NCBI GenBank assembly: GCA_965218195.1
Contig: OZ244593.1
Location: 1,204,873-1,268,872, forward strand
DNA: 64,000 nucleotides
Direction of reading: 5' to 3'
Source of the DNA: Chloroflexota bacterium
GTDB lineage: Bacteria; Chloroflexota; UBA11872; VXNJ01
Shown: positions 30,876 through 47,854 of the stretch, piece after piece
How positions within the stretch are numbered: position 1 is the stretch's first letter
Layout: each line of letters begins with the position of its first letter
Made by a program: the position numbers and the translations under genes
The notes under the pieces: model-generated
Told to the model about the DNA's origin: nothing
What the model saw: the letters and a program-made list of their open reading frames with translations, nothing else
Database searches by the model: none

Positions 30876-33077
30876 GTGATGGCCGGCGCGGCCGCTATGC
30901 TCCGCTGGGGGCCGTCGCTGGGAATGATCCCGGTGCTGGCCCTTATTGCTATCGCACTCGGACTGTGGAGGCGGCCCAAGGCCACGATAGCCGCGCTCAC
31001 GCTGTTGGCTTTCGGCGTGGGGATGGTCCGGGCCGCAACCCACCAATCCGTACAACCGCCCTTGATCGATACGTTCGAGCAAGGGATCGAGGTTCGCGTC
31101 ACCGGGCACGTAATCCGGCTCCCCGATCCCGATAAACGGCGGCCGCTTACGCTTGGAATCCGGTCCGCCGACCCTATTTCCGACGATCCCGACGGGGCTC
31201 GAACCGTTGGCGGAAGGGTCCACCTCTACTCGTTTTCGCCTTTGTACTCCGAAGGCCAGGATTTGGAAGTCAGCGGGATACTTAGGCTGTACGATCCGCC
31301 GCCCTCCGATCCCAAGCGATTCCCGATAGGCCGAATCGACCGCCCCGTGGTCCAGATTGTGCCGGGTTCCGGCGGGGGCGCGACCGGCCTGCTGGCCGAA
31401 GTTCGCGGTCGCGTCGACCGCGCCATCAAGCAGGCGCTTCCCGAGCCTCACTCGGCGCTGCTCTCGGCGATTCTGCTCGGAATACGGGCCGACATTCCCC
31501 GCCCGCTTATAAACGATATGAACGCCGCCGGCCTGACGCACCTCATAGCCATTTCGGGTTACAACATCACGCTGCTGGCCATGGTAATTCGGCGTCTTGC
31601 CGGTGTCTTGTTCGGCAGAAGAGCCGTGTTCGTCGTTATGGCAGTACTGCCGATGTATGCCGCCCTGGTTGGAGCGGACCCGCCTGTCGTCCGGGCGACG
31701 ATCATGGCGGAGCTCGTCCTGTTTGCCTGGATCGTGGGGCGTGAGAGTCATCTTCTGACGACCCTGATGCTTTCGGCGGCGGCGATGACGCTTGCAGACC
31801 CCGACATCCTGGGACAGGTGAGCTTTCAGCTTTCGTTCGTGGCCACGCTCGGACTCGTCACGCTGGCGCCGAGGATATCCGCGGCTCTCGGTTTCATGCC
31901 ACGACTCCTGGCGGAGGTCATCGCCGTGGCCGTGGCGGCGCAAATCTTGGTGTCGCCCCTGCTGGCCATTCATTTTGGCAGGCTGAGTTTGCTGGCCGTG
32001 CCCGCGAACGTGATGGCTACGCCGATATCGCCGTGGGTCATGTCGACTGGAGCCCTAACGTCGATCTGGTCGCTGGTGGGACTGCCGGGCCGGGAGCTCG
32101 CGGGGTGGACGGTCTGGATGCCGCTGGAATACCTGATCTGGCTGTCACGCTTCTGGGGAAGCATACCCCTGTCGCAGATCCGGATACCGCCAATCCCCGA
32201 TTGGGCCGTCGCGATGTCGTATGCTGCGATCGCCGGCTCGATCTGGTTCGCCTCCCGACCCGCTTTTCGAGAATCCCTCAAGCGGTTCAAGCTGAGAAAA
32301 TGGACGGCCGGTTCGGTCGCGGTGGGCACCCTGCTGATTCTGCCCTCCGTGGCGGCGGTAGGCGACTTGGCGCCCGAGTATTCGGGACTACGATTGATCG
32401 TCTTGCTCAACGGACGAGCGCCGACCGTCTACGGTAGAACTGAGTCGGGAGCGAATTTCGTGATCGCGGGCTCGACGCACGACGCGTACCTGATCGACCG
32501 TCTCTTCCCCTTCCATGATTCCGATATCGACGTTTTGATGCTTCGCGACACCGGCCCCAGCTCGACCGATCTGACCGCCGCCGTCGCTGAGCGGCGCCGA
32601 ATATCCCGAATCTGGGCGGCCCCGCTGGACATGCCCCGCCAAGTGCGGATGGAGGGATCTCCGCCGAGCATCGAGATCGACGGACAGATCACCGTCGAGG
32701 CGCTGTGGAGTCCGGGCCGGTCCGCCGACCCGGCCCTGCGGATCAACGCGAACGGATTCTCAATTCTGATCCCCCCCGTTCGACGCGCCTCCCATCACCC
32801 CTCCCCCAGCCTGGCGGGCGACGGTCTTGTTGCTGCCCGAGCGTTACCATCCCGGATACACCGAGCCTGGCTTCTTGAGGCGGACGGGCGTGGAAACCGT
32901 AGTGGCGGCCGGCGGACCTCGTGGACGAACGGTTATCGTCCCGGCCATGGCGCTGGGCCAAGGCACGGCACACACGGCGCTGGGCGTACGCTCCAAAACG
33001 GGCGCTCCTGTAGCATTTACGTGGGACGGCAGCACCTACACAATCGAATTCTCCGAGTAGAGCGCGAGCCTAAATAG
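30876..33077 (+). CDS. comEC: DNA internalisation competence protein ComEC/Rec2 (DUF4131 + Competence + MBL domain). The 3' end shows a probable +1 frameshift at the C7 run 32771-32777. The alternative C-terminus ends at 33060.
   Basis: LTHLIAISGYNITLLAMVI competence-domain motif. The tail of the annotated frame is R/G/H-rich low complexity. The +1 frame from 32770 encodes ...TVLLLPERYHPGYTEPGFL...VAFTWDGSTYTIEFSE, resembling the genuine ComEC C-terminus (VLxVPHHGS...). Confidence 0.8.
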   Translation: MMAGAAAMLRWGPSLGMIPVLALIAIALGLWRRPKATIAALTLLAFGVGMVRAATHQSVQPPLIDTFEQGIEVRVTGHVIRLPDPDKRRPLTLGIRSADPISDDPDGARTVGGRVHLYSFSPLYSEGQDLEVSGILRLYDPPPSDPKRFPIGRIDRPVVQIVPGSGGGATGLLAEVRGRVDRAIKQALPEPHSALLSAILLGIRADIPRPLINDMNAAGLTHLIAISGYNITLLAMVIRRLAGVLFGRRAVFVVMAVLPMYAALVGADPPVVRATIMAELVLFAWIVGRESHLLTTLMLSAAAMTLADPDILGQVSFQLSFVATLGLVTLAPRISAALGFMPRLLAEVIAVAVAAQILVSPLLAIHFGRLSLLAVPANVMATPISPWVMSTGALTSIWSLVGLPGRELAGWTVWMPLEYLIWLSRFWGSIPLSQIRIPPIPDWAVAMSYAAIAGSIWFASRPAFRESLKRFKLRKWTAGSVAVGTLLILPSVAAVGDLAPEYSGLRLIVLLNGRAPTVYGRTESGANFVIAGSTHDAYLIDRLFPFHDSDIDVLMLRDTGPSSTDLTAAVAERRRISRIWAAPLDMPRQVRMEGSPPSIEIDGQITVEALWSPGRSADPALRINANGFSILIPPVRRASHHPSPSLAGDGLVAARALPSRIHRAWLLEADGRGNRSGGRRTSWTNGYRPGHGAGPRHGTHGAGRTLQNGRSCSIYVGRQHLHNRILRVEREPK

Positions 33078-37602: not shown

Positions 37603-37668
37603 GGACCCAAAAAACAGGCGGGCGCGACCGCCGCAATCGTCTATAGAACCCGGCCGGCCAGCCGTAAC

Positions 37669-39408
37669 CTAATCGTCGCCAAACAACTCCCGCGCCAGAT
37701 CGACCTCGGCTGAGCCGTCCGACCCGGGGAACAGCGCTTCGTCCGTCTTGCGGCGGCGCACCTTTTCGGGCTGGAAATAGCCCGTCCACGTTTCGGCGGA
37801 TTTCGAGCTGGCTCCGCCGTGTGTGGTTTCGCGCTGGCGCACCCGGCAGAGAACCGTGGTGTTGACGGCGGCGCCGGAGACGATGGCCTGGCCCTTCGAG
37901 AGCGCCGGCAATTCAGCCAGCAAGTCGCGGCCCATGCTTTCCACCGCCGACGCTACCGCGTTCTGGTCGACGGGATTGACGATTCGCATGATGCACTGGG
38001 TCATGCATTGCGACAGCACGTCCTGGTCGAGCTTTCCGGGGCGTTGAGTAATAAGACCAATCCCCATGCCGAATTTGCGTCCCTCGGCGAGTATTTCGGC
38101 GAGAAGGTTGCTTGTTGCAACTCCCCCGCCGGGCGGAGCGAAGCGGTGTGCCTCTTCGATCAACACGAATATGGGGAACGGTACGTGCAGCTCGTCTTGC
38201 GGGTCCGTTTCGCCGCGTTTGGTCTGCTGCCGCCCCTCGAACGCGCGTCTCAGAATGGTCGCGACGACGATCTGCTGGCTTCGACGGTCCATTCCGCCGA
38301 CCTGTAGGACGGAACACCGGCCCGGACGCAGAAGCGCTTGCATGTCGGTGTGTTTGTAGTCGTCGAACGCGCCCCGGCGGCCCAGGGTGTCCTGGAGCTT
38401 GAAGGTGAGAGCCTGTTTAGAGCTCCGATAGTCTTCCTGGCCGTCCTGGTCCGACCGTCCTCCGGAGAGGCGCGCGACATCCACTTTCTCGACGGCGCCG
38501 AGCAGATCGTCGAATATCCAGTTTTTGTTGCGGAGCGAGCCGAGCGCTCTGCGGGCGATTACCCGCTGAGGAGTGCTCACGTCTCCCAGCAGGTACAAAA
38601 TGTCATCGTGGTGCATGACGTTGCGGCGCACCACGAACTCGCCCTCGCGAAATATCTTGACCTCGGGCCGGTACTCGATTTCCGGATCGCTTCGACGAAA
38701 AGCGCTGATATTCGGTATTTGGTCCAGCGTGTCGTATTCCTCATGGGGGTCGATAATGAGTACGGCGGCCGCGTTGTTAGGACGCAGCAGCTCTTCGACT
38801 ATTACGCCCGCCAGATAGCTCTTTCCCGCTCCGGTTCCGGCGATGATCGCCAGATGCGTATTTGCGAACTCGTCGGCGTCCATCGAAACGGGCACTTCGC
38901 CATCGGCTCTCGTGAGCAGCGACCCGACGTGGACGGCGCCTGTTTCGCCGGGGTTCTTGCTGCTGAGAATCTGGGCCAGCGTTTGGGGTTCGGCGAGGTA
39001 GACGGGCAGTCCCGGCCGCGGGGCGATTCGCGGATTCACGAACCCCATGGTCTCGGAGAAATGGCCCATGATGGACACGTTGACCTCGTACAGCTCCGAA
39101 TCGGCCGACTCGAATCCCAGAATGCGGGCGACCTCGCCGGGCGGCGTGGCCGGGTCTGCCATGAACGCGTCGGGATAGAGCTTTAGATGAGTTCGGGACG
39201 CCACGCGTCCGAAGATTCGCCGACGGACGTCCTCAACGTCGTCCCAGTAGTAAATGAACTCGCCGATCTTTACGGCGCCCTCGCGATCGGGCGTAACGAT
39301 GGTGAAGTCTCCGGCGCTTTCGCCGGGGCCTTTGGTAGTGCCTATCGGAGGCGTGTAATCGCCCGCCGCGTTGAAGTTCATCTGGCCTGCTCGACCTTGA
39401 GCTTCCAC
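37669..39408 (-). CDS. herA: HerA-family hexameric ATPase/helicase (HAS-barrel + FtsK/RecA-like ATPase). The probable start is ATG 39381, overlapping the upstream stop (ATGA).
   Basis: Walker A IIAGTGAGKSYLAGVI, Walker B VFVLIEEAHRFAP, arginine-finger region LITQRPGKLDQDVLSQC, and an N-terminal barrel (KIGEFIYYWDD...IFGRV). Confidence 0.85.
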   Translation of the reverse strand: MEAQGRAGQMNFNAAGDYTPPIGTTKGPGESAGDFTIVTPDREGAVKIGEFIYYWDDVEDVRRRIFGRVASRTHLKLYPDAFMADPATPPGEVARILGFESADSELYEVNVSIMGHFSETMGFVNPRIAPRPGLPVYLAEPQTLAQILSSKNPGETGAVHVGSLLTRADGEVPVSMDADEFANTHLAIIAGTGAGKSYLAGVIVEELLRPNNAAAVLIIDPHEEYDTLDQIPNISAFRRSDPEIEYRPEVKIFREGEFVVRRNVMHHDDILYLLGDVSTPQRVIARRALGSLRNKNWIFDDLLGAVEKVDVARLSGGRSDQDGQEDYRSSKQALTFKLQDTLGRRGAFDDYKHTDMQALLRPGRCSVLQVGGMDRRSQQIVVATILRRAFEGRQQTKRGETDPQDELHVPFPIFVLIEEAHRFAPPGGGVATSNLLAEILAEGRKFGMGIGLITQRPGKLDQDVLSQCMTQCIMRIVNPVDQNAVASAVESMGRDLLAELPALSKGQAIVSGAAVNTTVLCRVRQRETTHGGASSKSAETWTGYFQPEKVRRRKTDEALFPGSDGSAEVDLARELFGDD

Positions 39409-39983
39409 TGGAGATTGTTACGTATTACGGACAGCGCCGCCGACTCCCCCGGAAACAGGCCCGCGAGCCGGTCGGACAGGTTCAGGAGCAGCTGCCCGAT
39501 CAGGGGGTGGCCGTGCGCCAGAAGATGCGGAACGTATCCGACCTTAAAGCGGCCATTGGGCATGTGAAAAGTCACAATCTCGCCGTCTTCCAGCACCCGG
39601 ACGGGAGCGCCAATGAATGGCGACGTTGAGGTGACGCCGTGAAACGCCGTGTCGTCGCGGCTCAACATGCCCAGCGCAATGATTCCCACCAGCGTCGCCG
39701 TATCAGCGTACCGGTCCGGCGTTAGACGGTCGGACTCGATCTGCGGCCTGATTCGAGGTCCCGCCGAACCGAAGTCCGGGTTGAAGAGGATGGTGTCGAA
39801 AACGACGCCCACCAACTCGGACGCGGCGTCCTCCATGCCGACGGCGACGAGAGTCCCAAACGCGTACCGCGCCGCGTCGGGCGGATCGGCAACTTCGCCC
39901 CTGGCCAGGACCTGGCAGACGAACTCGACGTGAGAATTCGATTTGACGATGGCGCCTATTTCCAGGTTGCCTATCTCCTCCAT
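39378..39983 (-). CDS. Hypothetical 201-aa protein between nurA and herA, overlapping both. Possibly a small beta-barrel (HAS-barrel-like) N-terminal fold.
   Basis: The ORF overlaps the nurA stop by 13 nt and the herA start in an ATGA arrangement. N-terminal LEIGAIVKSNSHVEFVCQV...GTLVAV...VGVVFDTIL has alternating hydrophobic beta-strand character. No known motif recognised. Confidence 0.45.
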   Translation of the reverse strand: MEEIGNLEIGAIVKSNSHVEFVCQVLARGEVADPPDAARYAFGTLVAVGMEDAASELVGVVFDTILFNPDFGSAGPRIRPQIESDRLTPDRYADTATLVGIIALGMLSRDDTAFHGVTSTSPFIGAPVRVLEDGEIVTFHMPNGRFKVGYVPHLLAHGHPLIGQLLLNLSDRLAGLFPGESAALSVIRNNLQWKLKVEQAR

Positions 39984-41161
39984 AGCTTGCTTTCGTTCTT
40001 AGGCCGCGGCCGCCGCCGGCGCAGCGGGCTTGAGTCGGGGAACCGCTGCTCGGCGAACTGGCGGAAAATGTCTCGAAACCTGTCCCTGTCGCGGGCAGTC
40101 AATACCGCAACCGCGTCGGCGGTTTCCAGCGCGTACGGGTAACCGCCGCCTTGCGCCACGATTTCGGCGCGAATCGCGTCCACCAGTTGCTCCAGCTTTC
40201 CGGAGCGCAGAATCCAGCCCGGAAACTCCAGCCTTGCCGGCAGCGCGCCTAGGCTCGAACGAAGATAGACGAAATGAACGTCGGTCTGCCGGCTCCGTTT
40301 ATCGTAGTTTTCCAGCCCTTTGGCCCTGGCGCAAACGAACGCTGGGGTCCGCTGGAGCCAGTCGCTTTCGGGCAACAAGACGCCGTCGATCAGGTGGGTT
40401 GGCGATCTGTCGTCGAGCCACGAGTACATTTGCGACAGATCGCGGGCGCGGCTGGAATCCAGATAGCCGACGACGGGCGTCCGCGTTTTCTCGGACGCCT
40501 CCATTAGGTCCAGAACGGATTCCACATACCGGGGGCGCAGACTGGTGGCGAACGAGACCACCAGACTCCCGTCGAAAATGGCGACTCTTCGGCCAGGCTC
40601 GTCCACGCGCGACTCCATCCACTCGATCAGGGTCTCAATTTCCAGGCGATGCCTGCGCTCGTTCACGGCGTCCTGAAGCGCTACGTCGTCCGAATCGTTT
40701 GCGAGTAAATCGTGCGGTAAAAGCGGCTTGAATCTGGTCGACTTTTTGTAGTCGTCTTTGCCGCGATGGGGATTCTCGAACATGCCGACCCGCACGGCGG
40801 TTACGGGGACGCTCCAGTCGCCGGACGGATATATCTGGCTGCCGTCAACGGCCAGCGTCGTGACGCCGGTCAACGCGCGCTCCGCCCACTGGCTCCACTC
40901 GCGTCGGCTCGCGTCGGATGGCAGTCGGGTTTCAAATGGAAGCCAGCTTTCCATCCCTGGGGCCCACTCCGGCGACGGGTAGGCGCCGTGTTTGCCGGAG
41001 GGCCATTCGAGCTCGGCGTTGAGGTCGTCAGCCTCACGGCCAAGCGCGGCCCTGGCCGACTTTCGCAAACGGTCGCGCTCGCGGAGGAGCTCGCCGCTCG
41101 ATTGCGATAGCTCATCGGCGTGGTCTTCCAGGAATTGCCAGACCTGGGCGGCGTCGATCAT
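39971..41161 (-). CDS. nurA: NurA-like 5'-3' nuclease (RNase H-like fold).
   Basis: TTLAVDGSQIYPS matches the catalytic VDGS motif of NurA. C-terminal GGGYPYALETADAVAVL resembles the conserved NurA tail. It is wedged between the rad50-like and herA genes. Confidence 0.6.
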   Translation of the reverse strand: MIDAAQVWQFLEDHADELSQSSGELLRERDRLRKSARAALGREADDLNAELEWPSGKHGAYPSPEWAPGMESWLPFETRLPSDASRREWSQWAERALTGVTTLAVDGSQIYPSGDWSVPVTAVRVGMFENPHRGKDDYKKSTRFKPLLPHDLLANDSDDVALQDAVNERRHRLEIETLIEWMESRVDEPGRRVAIFDGSLVVSFATSLRPRYVESVLDLMEASEKTRTPVVGYLDSSRARDLSQMYSWLDDRSPTHLIDGVLLPESDWLQRTPAFVCARAKGLENYDKRSRQTDVHFVYLRSSLGALPARLEFPGWILRSGKLEQLVDAIRAEIVAQGGGYPYALETADAVAVLTARDRDRFRDIFRQFAEQRFPDSSPLRRRRPRPKNESKLWRR

Positions 41162-41197
41162 CGGTTCGGGTTCATCCGGGCAAGTTCGCGGCGGAAT

Positions 41198-43999
41198 TCA
41201 CTGACGCCGAACACGCGAGACGCCGTTTATTTTCTCGACGTGGATCACGGATTGCAGCAGCCGCTCGAAGGTGTCGTCGTGACTGATCACGAATAGCTGG
41301 GAAAAGCCGGTAATACGCTGAATCTGTTCCGCCAGATTTTCCCTGCGGGTGGCGTCGAGGTTTTGGGTGGGTTCGTCGAGGAAAGCGGTGTCGATTCGAA
41401 GCAGGTCCCTGAGCAGGGCCAGTCTCACGGACAGCGCCGCGGTTATCTGCTCGCCGCCGGAGAGCTGTCGAAACGACCGGCGGTAGCCGCCGCTCTCGAG
41501 CCAGATTCCGTATTCCTCGTCCCATTGAAGCGATTGATCGTAGCTGCCCATGATCTCGCAGAATATCTCGTTTGCCGCGTTCGAGACTCCGAAGACCATG
41601 GCCTTCGTTACCTCCGGCCCCGCGTCGCGCAGCGAGTTGCGGATGAGCCGCGTTATGCGTTGGAGCGTCTCGGTGTGTTTGATTTTGGCGAAATTCGCCT
41701 CGAATTCCCGCTGAACCTCCAGCAACTCCAGCCGCTGCTCTTCCAGCAGCTTCAACTCGGCATCAAGCTGCTCCCGACGGCCGTGGAGCGCGCCGACCTG
41801 GATCTGTATGGCGCTCTCGTTTTCGCGAGCTTCGGTCAGACTGTCGGGATCGAACTGCTTTTCTCGCCTCTCAAGCAGCCGCCTGGCACGCTCGACCGCC
41901 TGCCCGGCCTCGTCGATTTTGGCGCGAGCGGACTCGCGCTCGTCGATCAGCACGGGCAGGTTGCTGGCAAGGGCGCTGTCCTTCAAATGCCGTTCGTGCG
42001 CCCGAAGCAACGTTTTGAGGGAACGCCGCAGGCTATCGACTCGTTCGGGCGTGTTTACCAGCGGTGCGATTTCCTCGCGCAGCGAGGCCACCTGTGAATC
42101 GGACAGCGCCACGGCATCCCGGGCCGTGGCGAGTTCGTCTTCAATTGATTGGCGCTTGCCAAGCTCCGATCGCGCGACTTGAAGACGGGTGCGCGGGTTC
42201 GGGTCGCCTAGCTCTTGAATACGCTTCACAAGCGCGGCAGCTTCGGATTCCGCTTCCAGGGCTTCGGACTCCGCGGCCCTGGCCTTGAGCGCCCGGGCGC
42301 CTTGCGCCTCCATGCGCTCGGACAGCGCCTTGATCTGGTCCTCCCAAACCGCGATCCCGGCCGCCTTTTCTTTGGCGGCGCGGGCAAGCCGCAACCGCAG
42401 GCGGGTTTCGTCGAGGATGGCTTCGAGCTCGGTCCGTTTGACCGGATCGGCGGCCTGGACGCGGACGCCGTAAAGCTCGACGAGGCGCGCGCCTCGCTCG
42501 ATTGCCCGTCTCAACGCCAGTCGCAGTCGGTGCAGGTCCGGTTCCCGGTCTGTGCGCTCCGGGCTGGACTCGATGCGCTGTTCGACGCCGGCGAGTTCCA
42601 GGCGCTCTTCGGCTACGCGCCCCGCGAGGCCGTCGACGCTCGAGCTGAAAAGTTGCAGCTCCTCCAAAGCGGTGTCCACCGAGGCGATGGACGCCGAAAG
42701 ATCGACCATCCGCCGCTGGAGACCATCGACCTGCGCGGCAAGCTGCCTGCCTTCACACGCATCGGCGGCCATGCGCTCGTATTTGTCCTTACCCGCGATT
42801 TGCTCGGCGAGTTCCGACTCGATTTGCTTCAATTGTTCCCTTGCGGTCCCAAGTCCGGCCGCTCGCTGGCGGGCTTCATTGAGCCGGTTCTCGATCTTCG
42901 ATTGCGACTTGACTGCTTGTTCCAAGGCCGGCAACCGGTCTCGCAGACTGGATAGCTCGTCTAGCTCGGCTTGAGCCCGTTCGCCGCGCTTTTGGTCGAT
43001 GTTCAGTTTGGCTTCGAGCACGCCGATTTCAGCCGAAAGACGCTGGAATTCGCCGAACCGCTCCTGCTCGATATGGAAGCGCTTTTCGGTTGACCGGTAT
43101 TCGGCGGACCGTGCGCTTGAAGCGCGTGCCCGTTCGGCGGCCCTTTCGGCCTGGCGTACCCTCGCGGCGGCCGCATCAAGCGACTCCTCGCGCAGCTTCA
43201 GAGTTTGCGAGTTGGCGCGCATCTCCGATTTCAGACGGTCGATCGACTCCTTGCGGGCGTTGAGACCGGCGGTTACGGCTCTGGCCTCTTTCAGTTCTTC
43301 GACGGCCTGATCGAGAAGCGTCGCAGCTTCACCGGCGGCGGTCCCTTTTTCCGCGATTGCCTGGACGACGCGAGGCAAGTCCTTGAGCCGCTCTTGCAGC
43401 GCCGCCAGGCTTTCACCGAGTTGCGTTTCTTGGTTTTCCAGCAAGTTCAGGGGCTGCCTTAATGCGTCGAACGCGGCGCGAAAGTCGTGGGTGCCGAGCA
43501 GCGGGTCGAACTTTCTCTTGCGCGACTGGGGTGTGTCGATGAAGTCGGCCGTGAGCCTCCCCTGGGGGACGCCGCTAACGTCGGCGAATATCGATTTGAG
43601 ATCGACGGCGCTGTCGCCGAATCCCAGACTCCGCCGAAGCAACTTGTCCACCTCCTCCCGGCCCTCGGCCAAAGCGCCGCCGCGTTTGGCGTCCATCAGT
43701 TTCGGAGTAGTGGACATGACGCCCGCTCGACTCTTTCGCAGCGACCGCACCGACTCATACTCTCGACCGTCCAACGGAGAGATGAACCCGACCCGTATTT
43801 CGGCGGACGTTTGCCCTTCGCGCATGAGCCCCGCGAGCGGGCCGTCGGCAAAACCGAACAACGCGTAGCCGACGGCCTCGACGATGGTCGACTTACCGGC
43901 GCCGTTTTCGCCGGAGATCGCCGTAAGACCCGGCGAAAGGTCGATGTACTGTTCGTCATAGCTTTTTACGTTTTTGAGGTAAACGCTAGTTATTTGCAA
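41198..43999 (-). CDS. Rad50/SbcC-like SMC-family ATPase with a long coiled coil and no CXXC zinc hook.
   Basis: N-terminal Walker A LTAISGENGAGKST. C-terminal ABC signature LSGGEQ and Walker B AFLDEPTQNLD...ISHD. The ~700-aa middle is coiled-coil heptads. Only two Cys in 933 aa, neither in a CXXC. Confidence 0.8.
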   Translation of the reverse strand: MQITSVYLKNVKSYDEQYIDLSPGLTAISGENGAGKSTIVEAVGYALFGFADGPLAGLMREGQTSAEIRVGFISPLDGREYESVRSLRKSRAGVMSTTPKLMDAKRGGALAEGREEVDKLLRRSLGFGDSAVDLKSIFADVSGVPQGRLTADFIDTPQSRKRKFDPLLGTHDFRAAFDALRQPLNLLENQETQLGESLAALQERLKDLPRVVQAIAEKGTAAGEAATLLDQAVEELKEARAVTAGLNARKESIDRLKSEMRANSQTLKLREESLDAAAARVRQAERAAERARASSARSAEYRSTEKRFHIEQERFGEFQRLSAEIGVLEAKLNIDQKRGERAQAELDELSSLRDRLPALEQAVKSQSKIENRLNEARQRAAGLGTAREQLKQIESELAEQIAGKDKYERMAADACEGRQLAAQVDGLQRRMVDLSASIASVDTALEELQLFSSSVDGLAGRVAEERLELAGVEQRIESSPERTDREPDLHRLRLALRRAIERGARLVELYGVRVQAADPVKRTELEAILDETRLRLRLARAAKEKAAGIAVWEDQIKALSERMEAQGARALKARAAESEALEAESEAAALVKRIQELGDPNPRTRLQVARSELGKRQSIEDELATARDAVALSDSQVASLREEIAPLVNTPERVDSLRRSLKTLLRAHERHLKDSALASNLPVLIDERESARAKIDEAGQAVERARRLLERREKQFDPDSLTEARENESAIQIQVGALHGRREQLDAELKLLEEQRLELLEVQREFEANFAKIKHTETLQRITRLIRNSLRDAGPEVTKAMVFGVSNAANEIFCEIMGSYDQSLQWDEEYGIWLESGGYRRSFRQLSGGEQITAALSVRLALLRDLLRIDTAFLDEPTQNLDATRRENLAEQIQRITGFSQLFVISHDDTFERLLQSVIHVEKINGVSRVRRQ

Positions 44000-45263
44000 C
44001 GTCGAGAATTCCGGCGCGCTCGAGCTCGGACGTCAGGGATTCCAGAAGAGACTCCGGCGATTCGGATTGAATGGACTGGGACTTGAGCCGGGCCGCCACG
44101 GCGGCGAGCTTGCCGGCGTGGGGTGCGAATTCGTCGTACTTTTCGAACATCTGCGTCAGGACGCTCCGCTCGATCTCGCTGCGCGTTCGTTGAAGGTCGG
44201 ACGCCGTCGATTCGCCGAGCTGCCGGTTATCCGTGTCCAGCACGACTCGGGCAATGAGGCAATCGAGCTTTTCCTGGAGGATTCTTTCGTAGCGGCCCGG
44301 TTCGACCAGACCGCGTTCGAATCTAAGCAGACCGGACAGCCGCAGTTCGACGATGGGACGTTCGGAACGCGAGTCCTGGTGGTCCTCGGCGAGTCTGGCG
44401 ATTGCCTCGGCAAGCTCCCCGGGCGTCGAGTATGAGTCGATTTTGATGCCCAGCTTTAGATATTTGCGGGCGAACGCAACGTTGCTGATTAGTCGAGCCT
44501 GCTGTTTGGGCGACGCGGCTGTATCGACCGTCACGTCATAGAAACCTTTAAGCCGCCCGACCTCTCGCGAGCTCCAGTTTTCGAGCGCGCCGGGACTGAA
44601 AAGCAGCGGCTCCTCGTCCGCGCCGTCGGGCAGGCTGAACGCGTGATGGACGTGTCCCAACGCAACGTAGTCAATGACGCCGCGAAGCACCAGCAGCTCG
44701 GCAGCGGTGCAGCCGCTGTGCAGATAGTCCACCTTGTCGTCGACGCCCGTGTGCAGGAGACAGATCGAGTGTTCGATGCCGGATGACGGCAGCTCCGCGG
44801 CGAGGCCGACGAAGCGGCGGACTATTTCCGGGAGCCGGGCGCCGTAATAACCGATCCCGAAAATGCGCACCCCGTTGAGGTCGAAATAGGTCCCTCCGGT
44901 TTCCGCCCGCCACGGACGGACCCCGACCCCGTTCTGCTCGCGGGTAATATCGAGCAGATGCAAAAGGCCTTGCCGCTCCAGGTACCAGACCCAGGTTCTG
45001 GCTCCATGCCGAAGGAACTTCTCGTGATTTCCCTCGATTGCGAAAACGGGTATTCCGGCTCTGGCAAGCCGTCGAAGGCCCGTAGCGGCGACGTTGAACG
45101 TCTCGGGATCGACGGTTTTCTGTTCAAACAGATCGCCGGCGATCAGCACGAAGTCCACGCCGGCGTCAATCGAGTATTTGACGACATCGCTGCAGGCACG
45201 GGCGAAGTCGATGGCGCGCTCGGCCCGGCCGTACTGCTGTTTGCCAAGATGGACGTCGGCCAT
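43986..45263 (-). CDS. sbcD: Mre11/SbcD-family calcineurin-like phosphoesterase nuclease.
   Basis: Motif I MADVHLG (DxH), motif II LIAGDLFE, motif III IEGNHE, and further His motifs. 425 aa. Its 3' end overlaps the rad50-like start by 14 nt. Confidence 0.85.
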   Translation of the reverse strand: MADVHLGKQQYGRAERAIDFARACSDVVKYSIDAGVDFVLIAGDLFEQKTVDPETFNVAATGLRRLARAGIPVFAIEGNHEKFLRHGARTWVWYLERQGLLHLLDITREQNGVGVRPWRAETGGTYFDLNGVRIFGIGYYGARLPEIVRRFVGLAAELPSSGIEHSICLLHTGVDDKVDYLHSGCTAAELLVLRGVIDYVALGHVHHAFSLPDGADEEPLLFSPGALENWSSREVGRLKGFYDVTVDTAASPKQQARLISNVAFARKYLKLGIKIDSYSTPGELAEAIARLAEDHQDSRSERPIVELRLSGLLRFERGLVEPGRYERILQEKLDCLIARVVLDTDNRQLGESTASDLQRTRSEIERSVLTQMFEKYDEFAPHAGKLAAVAARLKSQSIQSESPESLLESLTSELERAGILDVANN

Positions 45264-45304
45264 GTGGACGAACCGGAACTTAATGGCAATACTCCGTAAT
45301 CTTC

Positions 45305-46207
45305 ATGGCCGAGGCGCTGGGGACGCCGCTTATGAGTGACACTAGCCGGATCGTAGCCGTGACGGGAGGCGCCGGGCGGGTTGGCAGGCTGCTGGCCTCC
45401 AATCTTGGCACCTTGGGTCACACCGTGAGAATACTAGACCTGCCCGGGGCTGATTTCGTGGGGCTGGAGAAGTTTGCGACTCTGCCCGGGGATATCTGCG
45501 ACTACGGATACATGCAGTCCGCGCTGGCTGGCGCGGACGTAGTGGTGCATCTGGCGGCGCTGCTCCCGCCCATCGCTGAAGAAAGGCCGGAGCTTACTCA
45601 TCGAGTCAACGTGGAAGGAACAGAGAACACCCTCCGCGCCATGGACTCGATGGCGGGCGCGGGCGTGCTGGTTTTCAGCTCGTCGGTTGTCGTCTACGGC
45701 AACACTCAGAGCATGGAACCGCCCATAACGACCGATGCGCCGCTCAGGGGCGCGGGCGCTTACGCCGAGAGCAAGATTGCCGCGGAAGAGGCGATGGCCG
45801 AATCGGGAAGGCCGGCGGTGATTCTTCGCATATCCGGGGTATCCGTTCCCGACTTCCTGCTGCCTCCGGAAGTTTGGCCTTTCACCGCCGATCAGCGTAT
45901 GGAGTTCGTTCAGATAGACGACGTGGCGGCGGCCCTGACTTCGGCGGCGGACGGCGACTTCGCCGCCGGGACCGCCGCTCATAACATCGCCGGAGGCGAA
46001 AGCTGGCACTTGACCGGCCGCGGGTATTCGGACGCCTACCTAGGGGCGTTCCAGATTCCATCGGAAGAGGGTAGGTTTTTGGAGCGGTCAGAGGCCTTCG
46101 ACTTCTACGACATCGATTCCGCGGTCGAAGTCCTTGGCTTCAGTCCGACACCATTTGGGTACTTTCTCTCGGCGCTGGAATCATCGATCGCTAAAGCCTT
46201 GAGTTGA
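45305..46207 (+). CDS. NAD-dependent epimerase/dehydratase family protein (SDR).
   Basis: VTGGAGRVGRLLASNL Rossmann motif and a YxxxK-type region. 300 aa. Confidence 0.7.
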   Translation: MAEALGTPLMSDTSRIVAVTGGAGRVGRLLASNLGTLGHTVRILDLPGADFVGLEKFATLPGDICDYGYMQSALAGADVVVHLAALLPPIAEERPELTHRVNVEGTENTLRAMDSMAGAGVLVFSSSVVVYGNTQSMEPPITTDAPLRGAGAYAESKIAAEEAMAESGRPAVILRISGVSVPDFLLPPEVWPFTADQRMEFVQIDDVAAALTSAADGDFAAGTAAHNIAGGESWHLTGRGYSDAYLGAFQIPSEEGRFLERSEAFDFYDIDSAVEVLGFSPTPFGYFLSALESSIAKALS

Positions 46208-46606: not shown

Positions 46607-47854
46607 CTATGTGTCGCGGGTGATGCCGTTCTTGTCAATGGCCGACTTGACGTTCCTGGCGAATTTGGTCAGCTCGCCGTCGGCGGGGATGTCGTCGCCG
46701 GCAAGCCGCTCCTTGAACTGCTCGAATAGCCAGTCCTCTCGGCGGCCATGCGGGAGGTCGAAAAAGCTCCGCTCGAAGTAGGGAAGCTGGCCGGGGCCGA
46801 AGTAGCCTTTGTCGTGCAGCGAGTAGCCTTCAAGCTCGTCGGCGCCCTTGCCGAGCACCTCGCCGGTCTCTAGGTAGTGGTTCATCACAGCAGGCATGCC
46901 GAACTTCTGTATCGGACAGACCTTCATGCAGATACCGCAACCCTCGTATTTGGCCATTACGGGGCGGCATCGCTCGTAGATTAGTTTGTTCTTCTCGGCG
47001 CCGCGCCACCATACCTTATCTCCGACGAGGGCTCGTCCGGGGCAGCGTTCCACGCATACCAAGCACTTCTGACAGAAGGCGTGAATGCCATAGTCCACCG
47101 GCTCGTCGTACTTCACCGGTGCGTCGGTAGTGATCATCATCAGCCGAGCTCTGGAGCCGAAGTGTGGGGACAGGAGCTGGCCGTTGGCCCCAAGCTGCCC
47201 GAGGCCAGCGGCGACGAACATAGGGATCACTGCCGCGCTCGGATCGCGGGGGCTGTGAAGCTGCGCGTGGTAGCCCTTGTTTCGTATAAGCTCAGCGAGC
47301 CTGCCACCCCTTTCGCTCTCCAGTTCATAGGTGCCGTAGTGGGCGTGCTCGGCTTCAAGGCTGGGAAGGCTCTGGGTCTGGTCGTAGTCTTGCTCCATCG
47401 CTAGGCAGATGGCGTGGGGAAACTTTGCCCAGCTGCGCTTGCATTCGTAGACATAGCGGCGGTCGAACCTGGTGAAGCCGACCTCTCCGAACCCGAGCTC
47501 TCGGGCCTTATGCCGGATGTCTTCGGTGAGGTCTTCCCCCTCCTGCGGGGTACCTGACGGCTTCACGTCCGCCGAGACGTCGGCGGAGTCAACGAAGGGC
47601 TTCATCCGCTCGTCGTGGCCCCTGATGTAGTCGGCCACCTCGGGTGAATATACCGACCACACCCAGTCCCTGTCGGCGCCCCTCTCGATGTTCTGGCTTT
47701 CGAGGGGGTCTACGCGGCTGTAGAACGAGACGTCGACCTCGCGGAGAGGGATGCCCGGCGTGGTGGCCAAGTCCTCGGCAACACGTATTTCGACGTCCGG
47801 GTCTCCGTATGCTCGCCCGGGTCGCTTAACGGTATGGCTTATGGGCTTGGCCAT
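46607..47854 (-). CDS. QueG / reductive-dehalogenase-superfamily iron-sulfur protein (possible epoxyqueuosine reductase-like).
   Basis: Two CxxCxxCxxxCP motifs (CQKCLVCVERCP, CGICMKVCP). DIRHKARELGFGEVGF resembles the QueG/DUF1730 N-terminal region. The extra ~110-aa N-terminal region is atypical for QueG. Confidence 0.5.
   Translation of the reverse strand: MAKPISHTVKRPGRAYGDPDVEIRVAEDLATTPGIPLREVDVSFYSRVDPLESQNIERGADRDWVWSVYSPEVADYIRGHDERMKPFVDSADVSADVKPSGTPQEGEDLTEDIRHKARELGFGEVGFTRFDRRYVYECKRSWAKFPHAICLAMEQDYDQTQSLPSLEAEHAHYGTYELESERGGRLAELIRNKGYHAQLHSPRDPSAAVIPMFVAAGLGQLGANGQLLSPHFGSRARLMMITTDAPVKYDEPVDYGIHAFCQKCLVCVERCPGRALVGDKVWWRGAEKNKLIYERCRPVMAKYEGCGICMKVCPIQKFGMPAVMNHYLETGEVLGKGADELEGYSLHDKGYFGPGQLPYFERSFFDLPHGRREDWLFEQFKERLAGDDIPADGELTKFARNVKSAIDKNGITRDT

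Follow-up and report, generated by a model that had tools for sequence, protein, structure and literature searches.

A conserved five-gene cluster of Chloroflexota combines archaeal-type mre11, rad50, nurA and herA with a DUF8166 gene and may serve DNA end resection

How a bacterium comes to carry the set of end-resection genes considered typical of archaea, and what an additional gene contributes to that set, are the questions raised by a locus of a Chloroflexota bacterium (contig OZ244593.1). In the window, by which we mean the whole stretch of 64,000 nucleotides (nt) that was analysed, five genes lie in the same direction on the minus strand between positions 37669 and 45284: mre11, a rad50 without a zinc hook, nurA, the gene of a 201-residue DUF8166 protein, and herA (Table 1). 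All five open reading frames (ORFs) exist where a preliminary description of the locus had placed them. The recent literature confines bacterial NurA-HerA to a small number of bacteria, Deinococcus-Thermus among them, and the four-gene operon of Mre11-Rad50 (MR), HerA and NurA is regarded as an archaeal hallmark (PMC9960219). The explanation that we favour, and consider probable, is that the locus is an anciently fixed, vertically inherited chromosomal operon for archaeal-type end resection of double-strand breaks, to which DUF8166 has been added as a phylum-specific accessory subunit of HerA.

The identities proposed for the four known genes were borne out by domain matches and intact catalytic motifs. 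HerA matched its central domain, DUF87, with E = 1.7e-34 (120.3 bits, against a cutoff of 23.2), and its Walker A (GTGAGKS) and Walker B (FVLIEEAH) motifs are both found in the translation. Among the NCBIfam models, those of archaeal HerA (1.3e-54 and 1.2e-44) scored well above that of anti-phage HerA (2e-26); the matches in PDB were the HerAs of T. kodakarensis (1e-44) and S. solfataricus (2e-35), and Deinococcus HerA was not detected by phmmer at E <= 1e-3 with the window HerA. Approximately 110 conserved residues ahead of the ATPase gave no sequence match in Pfam or PDB, also when a profile of this N-domain was searched against PDB. Mre11 matched Metallophos with E = 1e-12 (49 bits, cutoff 21.5) and carries the phosphoesterase motifs I-V (DxH, GD, GNH[DE], H and GHxH) at residues 10, 50, 85, 176 and 210 of its 432-residue form. 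It was closer to the archaeal model Mre11_Pyroc (9e-28) than to sbcD (1e-10), and its best solved relative was the Mre11 of P. furiosus (3e-21), with bacterial SbcD weaker (1e-9). Rad50 matched SMC_N/AAA_23 at 7e-20 (SMC_N 71.8 bits, cutoff 40) and has all of the head motifs (Walker A, Q-loop region, LSGGE signature, Walker B and H-loop) on either side of some 540 residues of which 65% are E, K, R, Q, L or A; archaeal Rad50 (2.6e-42) was again preferred to sbcC (3.9e-19), and the best solved relative was the Rad50 of M. jannaschii (2e-24).

NurA matched PF09376 with E = 1.5e-25 (90.6 bits, cutoff 21) over profile positions 2-253 of 254. Single-sequence and profile searches with NurA against PDB sequences gave no match, and its fold was therefore established from Pfam and from an AlphaFold2 model (predicted local distance difference test, pLDDT, 86.8) compared by Foldseek. 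The top match was the NurA of Sulfolobus (S. solfataricus; 2ygk_A, E 3.6e-10, TM score 0.62 on the target); next came EndoV and PIWI, which are known fold relatives of NurA. The DGS aspartate D106, together with D197 and D349, is invariant in both of our alignments (13 and 17 relatives), and the fold and this catalytic aspartate, on which the preliminary description had made its NurA assignment depend, were thus both found. E346, K388, S391, K392, R395 and R396 are likewise invariant in both alignments; for E129 this holds in the alignment of 13 sequences and not in that of 17. By analogy, the acidic residues D106, D197, D349 and E129 would form the active site. Two further elements are conserved throughout the Chloroflexota subfamily, namely an N-terminal extension of about 100 residues that includes a long helix and precedes the Pfam domain (40862-41161), and a basic C-terminal tail (39971-40003) with the invariant residues K388, S391, K392, R395 and R396; both are possible contact elements for HerA or DNA.

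All four known parts thus appear to be of the archaeal repair type, scoring best against such proteins and not against those of the Deinococcus or SbcCD type, and the archaeal character claimed for them earlier held, the closest counterparts being the HerAs of Thermococcus and Sulfolobus, the Mre11 of Pyrococcus, the Rad50 of Methanocaldococcus and the NurA of Sulfolobus. The cutoffs of the archaeal equivalog models in NCBIfam were nevertheless not reached (HerA 186 against 970 bits, Rad50 145 against 700, Mre11 97 against 600). With scores so far below them, the window proteins are distant archaeal-like family members and not orthologues in the strict sense. The cluster resembles the end-resection operon of Sulfolobus, Pyrococcus and Thermococcus in that the same four families are packed in one direction with their catalytic motifs intact. 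It differs in its host, a mesophile-type Chloroflexota bacterium, in the extra DUF8166 gene and in the absence of the Rad50 hook from the clade. The gene order in the window, mre11-rad50-nurA-DUF8166-herA, is also different from the archaeal order, which is herA-mre11-rad50-nurA.

With the Deinococcus-Thermus system (drNurA-drHerA, PDB 7f6d; Thermus HepA) the locus shares a bacterial pair of NurA and HerA. In that system, and in the archaeal complexes, NurA docks on HerA's HAS-barrel ring (PMC3326311, PMC9960219). However, bacterial NurA structures were outside the top 50 fold matches of the window NurA, and the Deinococcus pair is unlinked to sbcCD and lacks DUF8166 (PMC9960219). The adjacent genes for a nuclease of the Mre11 family and an SMC-like ATPase of the Rad50 family also recall bacterial SbcCD, yet both proteins score higher against archaeal Mre11 and Rad50 than against SbcD and SbcC.

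The fifth gene, which had been called unannotatable, proved to be a member of a Pfam family with a recognisable HerA-like HAS-barrel fold. By precomputed annotation, its product and all 16 relatives belong to PF26500 (DUF8166); our own scans of Pfam, NCBIfam and PADLOC gave no match for it even at E <= 1, the Pfam copy used being one without the PF26500 model, and no mention of the name DUF8166 was found in the literature searched. When 1.84 billion representative proteins were searched with a profile, relatives were found in 325 clusters at 50% identity, essentially all of about 200 residues. In the AlphaFold model (pLDDT 77.7), an N-terminal beta-barrel is followed by a helical bundle. All 46 Foldseek matches at E <= 0.001 were HerA, with the HerAs of defence complexes as the best structural matches, and two independent structure searches concurred on the resemblance to the HerA N-domain. 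On this model, DUF8166 looks like a free-standing HAS-barrel-like domain without an ATPase, and we know of no described free-standing HAS-barrel protein. Unlike the HAS-barrel crown of HerA and of the F1, V1 and FliI ATPases, its barrel is a separate polypeptide, with a conserved loop insertion of 34 residues and a helical bundle of its own.

The alignment of DUF8166 has 37 invariant columns, and in the segment of residues 64-97 the invariant positions are N68, P69, F71, G72, G75, P76, R77, P89 and D90. The model has pLDDT values below 50 at residues 68-76 and 79-93, i.e., inside the most conserved segment of the protein. A segment that is conserved and yet not placed by the model shows the pattern typical of a loop that becomes ordered only on a partner, and we regard residues 64-97 as a candidate loop for binding a partner protein or DNA. 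Proteins in which DUF8166 appeared to be fused to other domains were rejected on inspection: the 448-residue P0118 is a frameshifted or chimeric call, and the apparent DUF8166-HerA fusions (L012, L066 and others) are ORFs that had been extended too far in DNA of high GC content.

The arrangement was considered unusual in the preliminary description, which does not hold: it is common in Chloroflexota and not a one-off. The DUF8166 alignment was scanned against one genome per GTDB species, which gave 114 relatives, and the counts of loci given here refer to the best 80 of these 114. The titles of 79 of the 80 loci name a Chloroflexota lineage, and the remaining one (L052) is labelled only "bacterium". 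On the same strand and downstream of DUF8166, herA is present in 70 loci, within 300 nt in 47 of them; NurA of this subfamily lies directly upstream of DUF8166 in 16, and the whole mre11-rad50-nurA-DUF8166-herA array was found in 13. NurA relatives formed 864 clusters, several of which carry the NCBI name "DNA double-strand break repair nuclease NurA" and come from Chloroflexota or Anaerolineae. Distant NurA relatives with 39-45% identity were sampled, and five out of five lay in the identical five-gene operon between other housekeeping genes. Recurrence of the cluster in dozens of genomes is far beyond chance. The preliminary description had itself raised the possibility that the cluster is common and already catalogued in this phylum; common it is, whereas no paper describing or cataloguing the five-gene layout was found, earlier mention of bacterial four-gene operons being possible in older comparative studies, which were outside the search.

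In the window the cluster is flanked by housekeeping genes (ribosomal protein L25, an NAD-dependent epimerase, glycolate-oxidase-like FAD and FeS proteins, proC, and genes of pyrimidine and purine biosynthesis). In relatives (L004-L013) the operon lies between the same epimerase and L25 genes, while the identity of its proteins with those of the window falls to approximately 40-55%. The argument made earlier that such flanks favour repair over a defence island was supported. In GC content the operon (0.615-0.631) is no different from the window as a whole, and neither tRNA nor Rfam elements were found within the 64 kb. Host-equal composition and synteny over deep divergence argue against a recent horizontal acquisition of the module, one of the origins initially suggested, and any transfer from archaea would have been ancient. 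All five genes are under purifying selection, with ratios of nonsynonymous to synonymous substitution (dN/dS) of 0.08-0.30 against four orthologous loci: 0.13-0.19 for DUF8166, 0.08-0.14 for herA and 0.13-0.17 for nurA.

The close packing reported for the five genes, with overlaps of 4-31 nt, was found at three of the four junctions. The overlap is 14 nt between mre11 and rad50 and 13 nt between nurA and DUF8166; between DUF8166 and herA it is 4 nt (ATGA, as first described) with the ATG at 39381 chosen by the gene caller, and 31 nt with the GTG at 39408. Between rad50 and nurA there is instead a gap of 36 nt. An overlap of the DUF8166 stop codon with the start of herA is present in the window and also in several orthologous operons. 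The 3' end of the operon is likely to be the hairpin that follows herA. Other terminator-like matches inside the cluster are less well formed, with three to five G-C pairs per five-pair stem, or lie on the opposite strand, and the number of such matches in the cluster was not above that in shuffled sequence. A scan for sigma-70 promoters upstream of mre11 found no site. The epimerase ORF, which is divergent, has its start at 45305 or at another in-frame ATG at 45332, approximately 20-47 nt from the mre11 start, and thus the promoters of both must overlap coding sequence. From the overlaps of 4-14 nt, the single 36-nt gap, the sole hairpin after herA and the conserved order, we infer that all five genes are transcribed together.

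Table 1. Features of the five-gene cluster, in positions of the window
Feature	Position	Strand	Description
mre11	43986..45284	minus	Mre11/SbcD-family nuclease; 425 aa from ATG 45263, probably 432 aa from AUU 45284
rad50	41198..43999	minus	SMC-like ABC ATPase, 933 aa, TTG start
Rad50 coiled-coil apex	42515..42577	minus	approximately residues 475-495, ...ESSPERTDREPD...; cysteine-free site, CPxC zinc hook in relatives
nurA	39971..41161	minus	RNase-H-like 5'-3' nuclease, 396 aa; PF09376
DUF8166 gene	39378..39983	minus	201 aa; predicted HerA-like HAS beta-barrel and C-terminal helical bundle, without ATPase domain
DUF8166 most conserved stretch	39693..39794	minus	residues 64-97, NPDFGxxGPR...PD; predicted disordered
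herA	37669..39381	minus	hexameric FtsK/HerA-type DNA translocase; 570 aa from ATG 39381; alternative GTG 39408 gives 579 aa
Terminator-like GC hairpin and T-run	37617..37632	minus	37 nt past the herA stop; GGCGG-TCGCGC-CCGCC then TGTTTTTTGG; consensus match

The start of mre11 was also re-examined, and it is probably the AUU that lies 21 nt 5' of the listed ATG. A GGAG stands 7 nt before this ATT, as it does in orthologues, and in L001 and L004-L008 the peptide IAIKFRFVH, corresponding to the first beta-strand preceding motif I, is conserved ahead of the annotated ATG. The mre11 of L008 has no ATG, GTG or TTG ahead of motif I, and that of L007 has an ATG two codons further upstream.

The hook-less state of Rad50 noted at the outset was confirmed: the window protein has two cysteines only (residues 415 and 814) and no CxxC, and in the alignment the apex of its clade carries two prolines where hook-bearing Rad50s have CPxC. 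SbcC, too, normally has a CxxC hook (PMC7752040). CxxC is absent from all 17 Rad50 clusters at >=50% identity, some of which are cysteine-free. In contrast, the midpoint of Rad50s from operons of the same type is CPVC or CPIC in Chloroflexota that are more distant, and a part of these proteins match Pfam Rad50_zn_hook; those of L077, L084 and L086 have CPIC or CPVC at the aligned apex. Hook loss therefore appears, from these alignments, to be specific to the clade of the window, with the ATPase otherwise intact, while more distant operons keep CPxC.

In the mechanism that we propose, by homology to the archaeal and Deinococcus complexes, Mre11-Rad50 would recognise, bind and trim the DNA end (PMC3326311, PMC9960219). 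A hexamer of HerA, with a dimer of NurA on its HAS-barrel face, would then translocate along the duplex, and NurA would degrade the 5' strand to produce a 3' tail for RecA. DUF8166 would use its conserved 64-97 loop to bind the HerA ring at its N-terminal face, or else to bind the NurA dimer docked there, and would tune the assembly of the nuclease with the motor or the coupling between them. In the clade of the window the Rad50 arms would no longer be joined by zinc, and apex dimerisation would be protein-protein or absent. The role given to DUF8166 is drawn from its HAS-barrel-like fold, its overlap with the herA start, which suggests translational coupling, its persistent pairing with herA and its conserved disordered loop. 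A more specific version, tentative and in our estimate somewhat short of an even chance, is that DUF8166 is an obligate third subunit placed on, or intercalated with, the HerA crown, where it would serve as an adaptor that chooses the partner: the NurA dimer, Mre11-Rad50, or none as in Caldilineaceae.

Several observations weigh against a dedicated end-resection operon with a HerA accessory subunit. In Caldilineaceae loci, DUF8166 and herA are paired with no nurA, mre11 or rad50 beside them, among unrelated neighbours such as sugar ABC transporters, and this lone pair may do something other than end resection. The DUF8166 profile gave no significant alignment by hhalign with profiles of full-length HerA or of the HerA N-domain (probability 2-5%), and the relationship to HerA is accordingly claimed as a resemblance of folds, resting on a model with pLDDT 77.7, and not as demonstrated common descent. 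In yeast, loss of the Rad50 hook is severely deleterious, and a hook-less MR complex may work differently. Finally, deletion of nurA or herA in Deinococcus or Thermus had modest effects on damage resistance or even improved it (PMC9960219), so that a repair role in bacteria is not guaranteed.

In one alternative explanation, DUF8166 and HerA would primarily be a DNA-pumping unit for transfer, segregation or uptake, as has been proposed for FtsK/HerA ATPases and for Thermus HepA/TdtA, and NurA and Mre11-Rad50 would be linked to it secondarily in some lineages. The persistence of the pair alone in most of the Caldilineaceae loci examined, the presence of ComEC and ComEA 5-10 kb away in the clade of the window, and the action of HerA-like ATPases in DNA donation by Thermus (PMC5365140) are all consistent with such a unit. 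We nevertheless judge it unlikely, as NurA of this subfamily was always found in the full five-gene operon when it was looked up (5/5), the closeness of ComEC is not conserved in other lineages, and HerA is most similar to archaeal repair HerAs. At the other extreme, the 201-residue ORF might be what is left of a duplicated herA in decay, without any function. The HerA-like N-domain fold without an ATPase would fit such a remnant, but 325 clusters of uniform length, 37 invariant columns, dN/dS of 0.13-0.19 without internal stops, and a conserved position, with the stop overlapping the herA start in the window and in some orthologous operons, make this extremely improbable; conservation and selection effectively refute it.

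A possible anti-phage role was also raised in the preliminary description. The HerA motor, NurA and an SMC-like sensor might destroy foreign linear DNA of phages or plasmids, in the manner of Lamassu, Sir2-HerA or DUF4297-HerA, with DUF8166 as a regulator. Sir2-HerA (Nezha) and DUF4297-HerA also consist of a HerA hexamer with a partner at its N-terminal barrel face. Generic PADLOC models match the window HerA and SMC protein (HerA 9e-42, LmuB 2.5e-29, mad3 and mad8), and it is to HerAs of defence complexes that DUF8166 is best matched in structure. In addition, cassettes resembling toxin-antitoxin genes are inserted beside the Caldilineaceae pair, and the idea that foreign DNA could be degraded by HerA-NurA was put forward as a speculation by Blackwood et al. 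(PMC3326311). However, the window lacks a Sir2, DUF4297 or LmuA effector, so that the generic matches are without a cognate partner, and NurA, Mre11 and DUF8166 have no PADLOC match. The window HerA is far closer to archaeal repair HerA than to anti-phage HerA (1e-54 against 2e-26), the housekeeping position is fixed over deep divergence with a host-like composition, the distribution across the phylum looks vertical and not patchy, and no relative was found in the collection of viral contigs searched. A defence function is thus quite unlikely, and end resection with DUF8166 as a subunit of HerA remains the probable explanation.

If this explanation is correct, a whole bacterial phylum would possess an archaeal-type operon in a housekeeping context together with an extra conserved subunit, which would enlarge the known range of the resection pathway, make mesophilic bacterial material available for its study and give a DUF family a testable function as a partner of HerA. 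Natural hook-less Rad50s beside hook-bearing sister operons would help to probe the role of the zinc hook. Should the adaptor version be true as well, HerA would be regulated in a manner described neither for archaea nor for defence systems, and the clade, in which the Rad50 zinc hook has been lost too, would offer a natural experiment on the purpose of the hook.

The hook-less state is not unique to this clade. Many more distant SbcC/Rad50-like matches (within P0304-P0328), including 913-residue proteins labelled Halobacteriota, also lack a central CxxC, and the apex of the L069 Rad50 has a CPx6C variant. Natural Rad50s without a hook or with a variant hook may be commoner than usually assumed.

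Further observations concern the neighbourhood of DUF8166 and herA in other loci. In Caldilineaceae, pairs of small genes (approximately 89 and 100 residues, or 79 and 120 residues) stand between the two (L015, L022, L023, L035, L048, L049, L059, L074 and others), which we take to be similar to the DUF4160/DUF2442 and DUF433/PIN-like toxin-antitoxin cassettes, and in some of these loci a 412-residue type I phosphodiesterase is inserted as well. The pair thus tolerates insertions and yet stays linked. In a contig from forest soil (L088, 1520-7255), a distant DUF8166 member is followed by a sigma-70 factor, an IS605 OrfB/TnpB, an N6/N4 methyltransferase and a partial gene of 507 residues, and the usual adjacency of herA appears to have been disrupted by the insertion of a mobile element.

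In the clade of the window, herA has a ComEC homologue and a ComEA-like gene at a distance of 5-10 kb (window approximately 30876-33077, plus strand; L001 16924-20606), a closeness not seen in the other operon-bearing lineages. On the other side of the cluster, a 415-residue ORF without a Pfam match adjoins the epimerase gene (46607-47854, minus strand). The same region is called as three small ORFs in L002, a contig of 3x coverage from the same population, which may reflect either strain variation or assembly errors.

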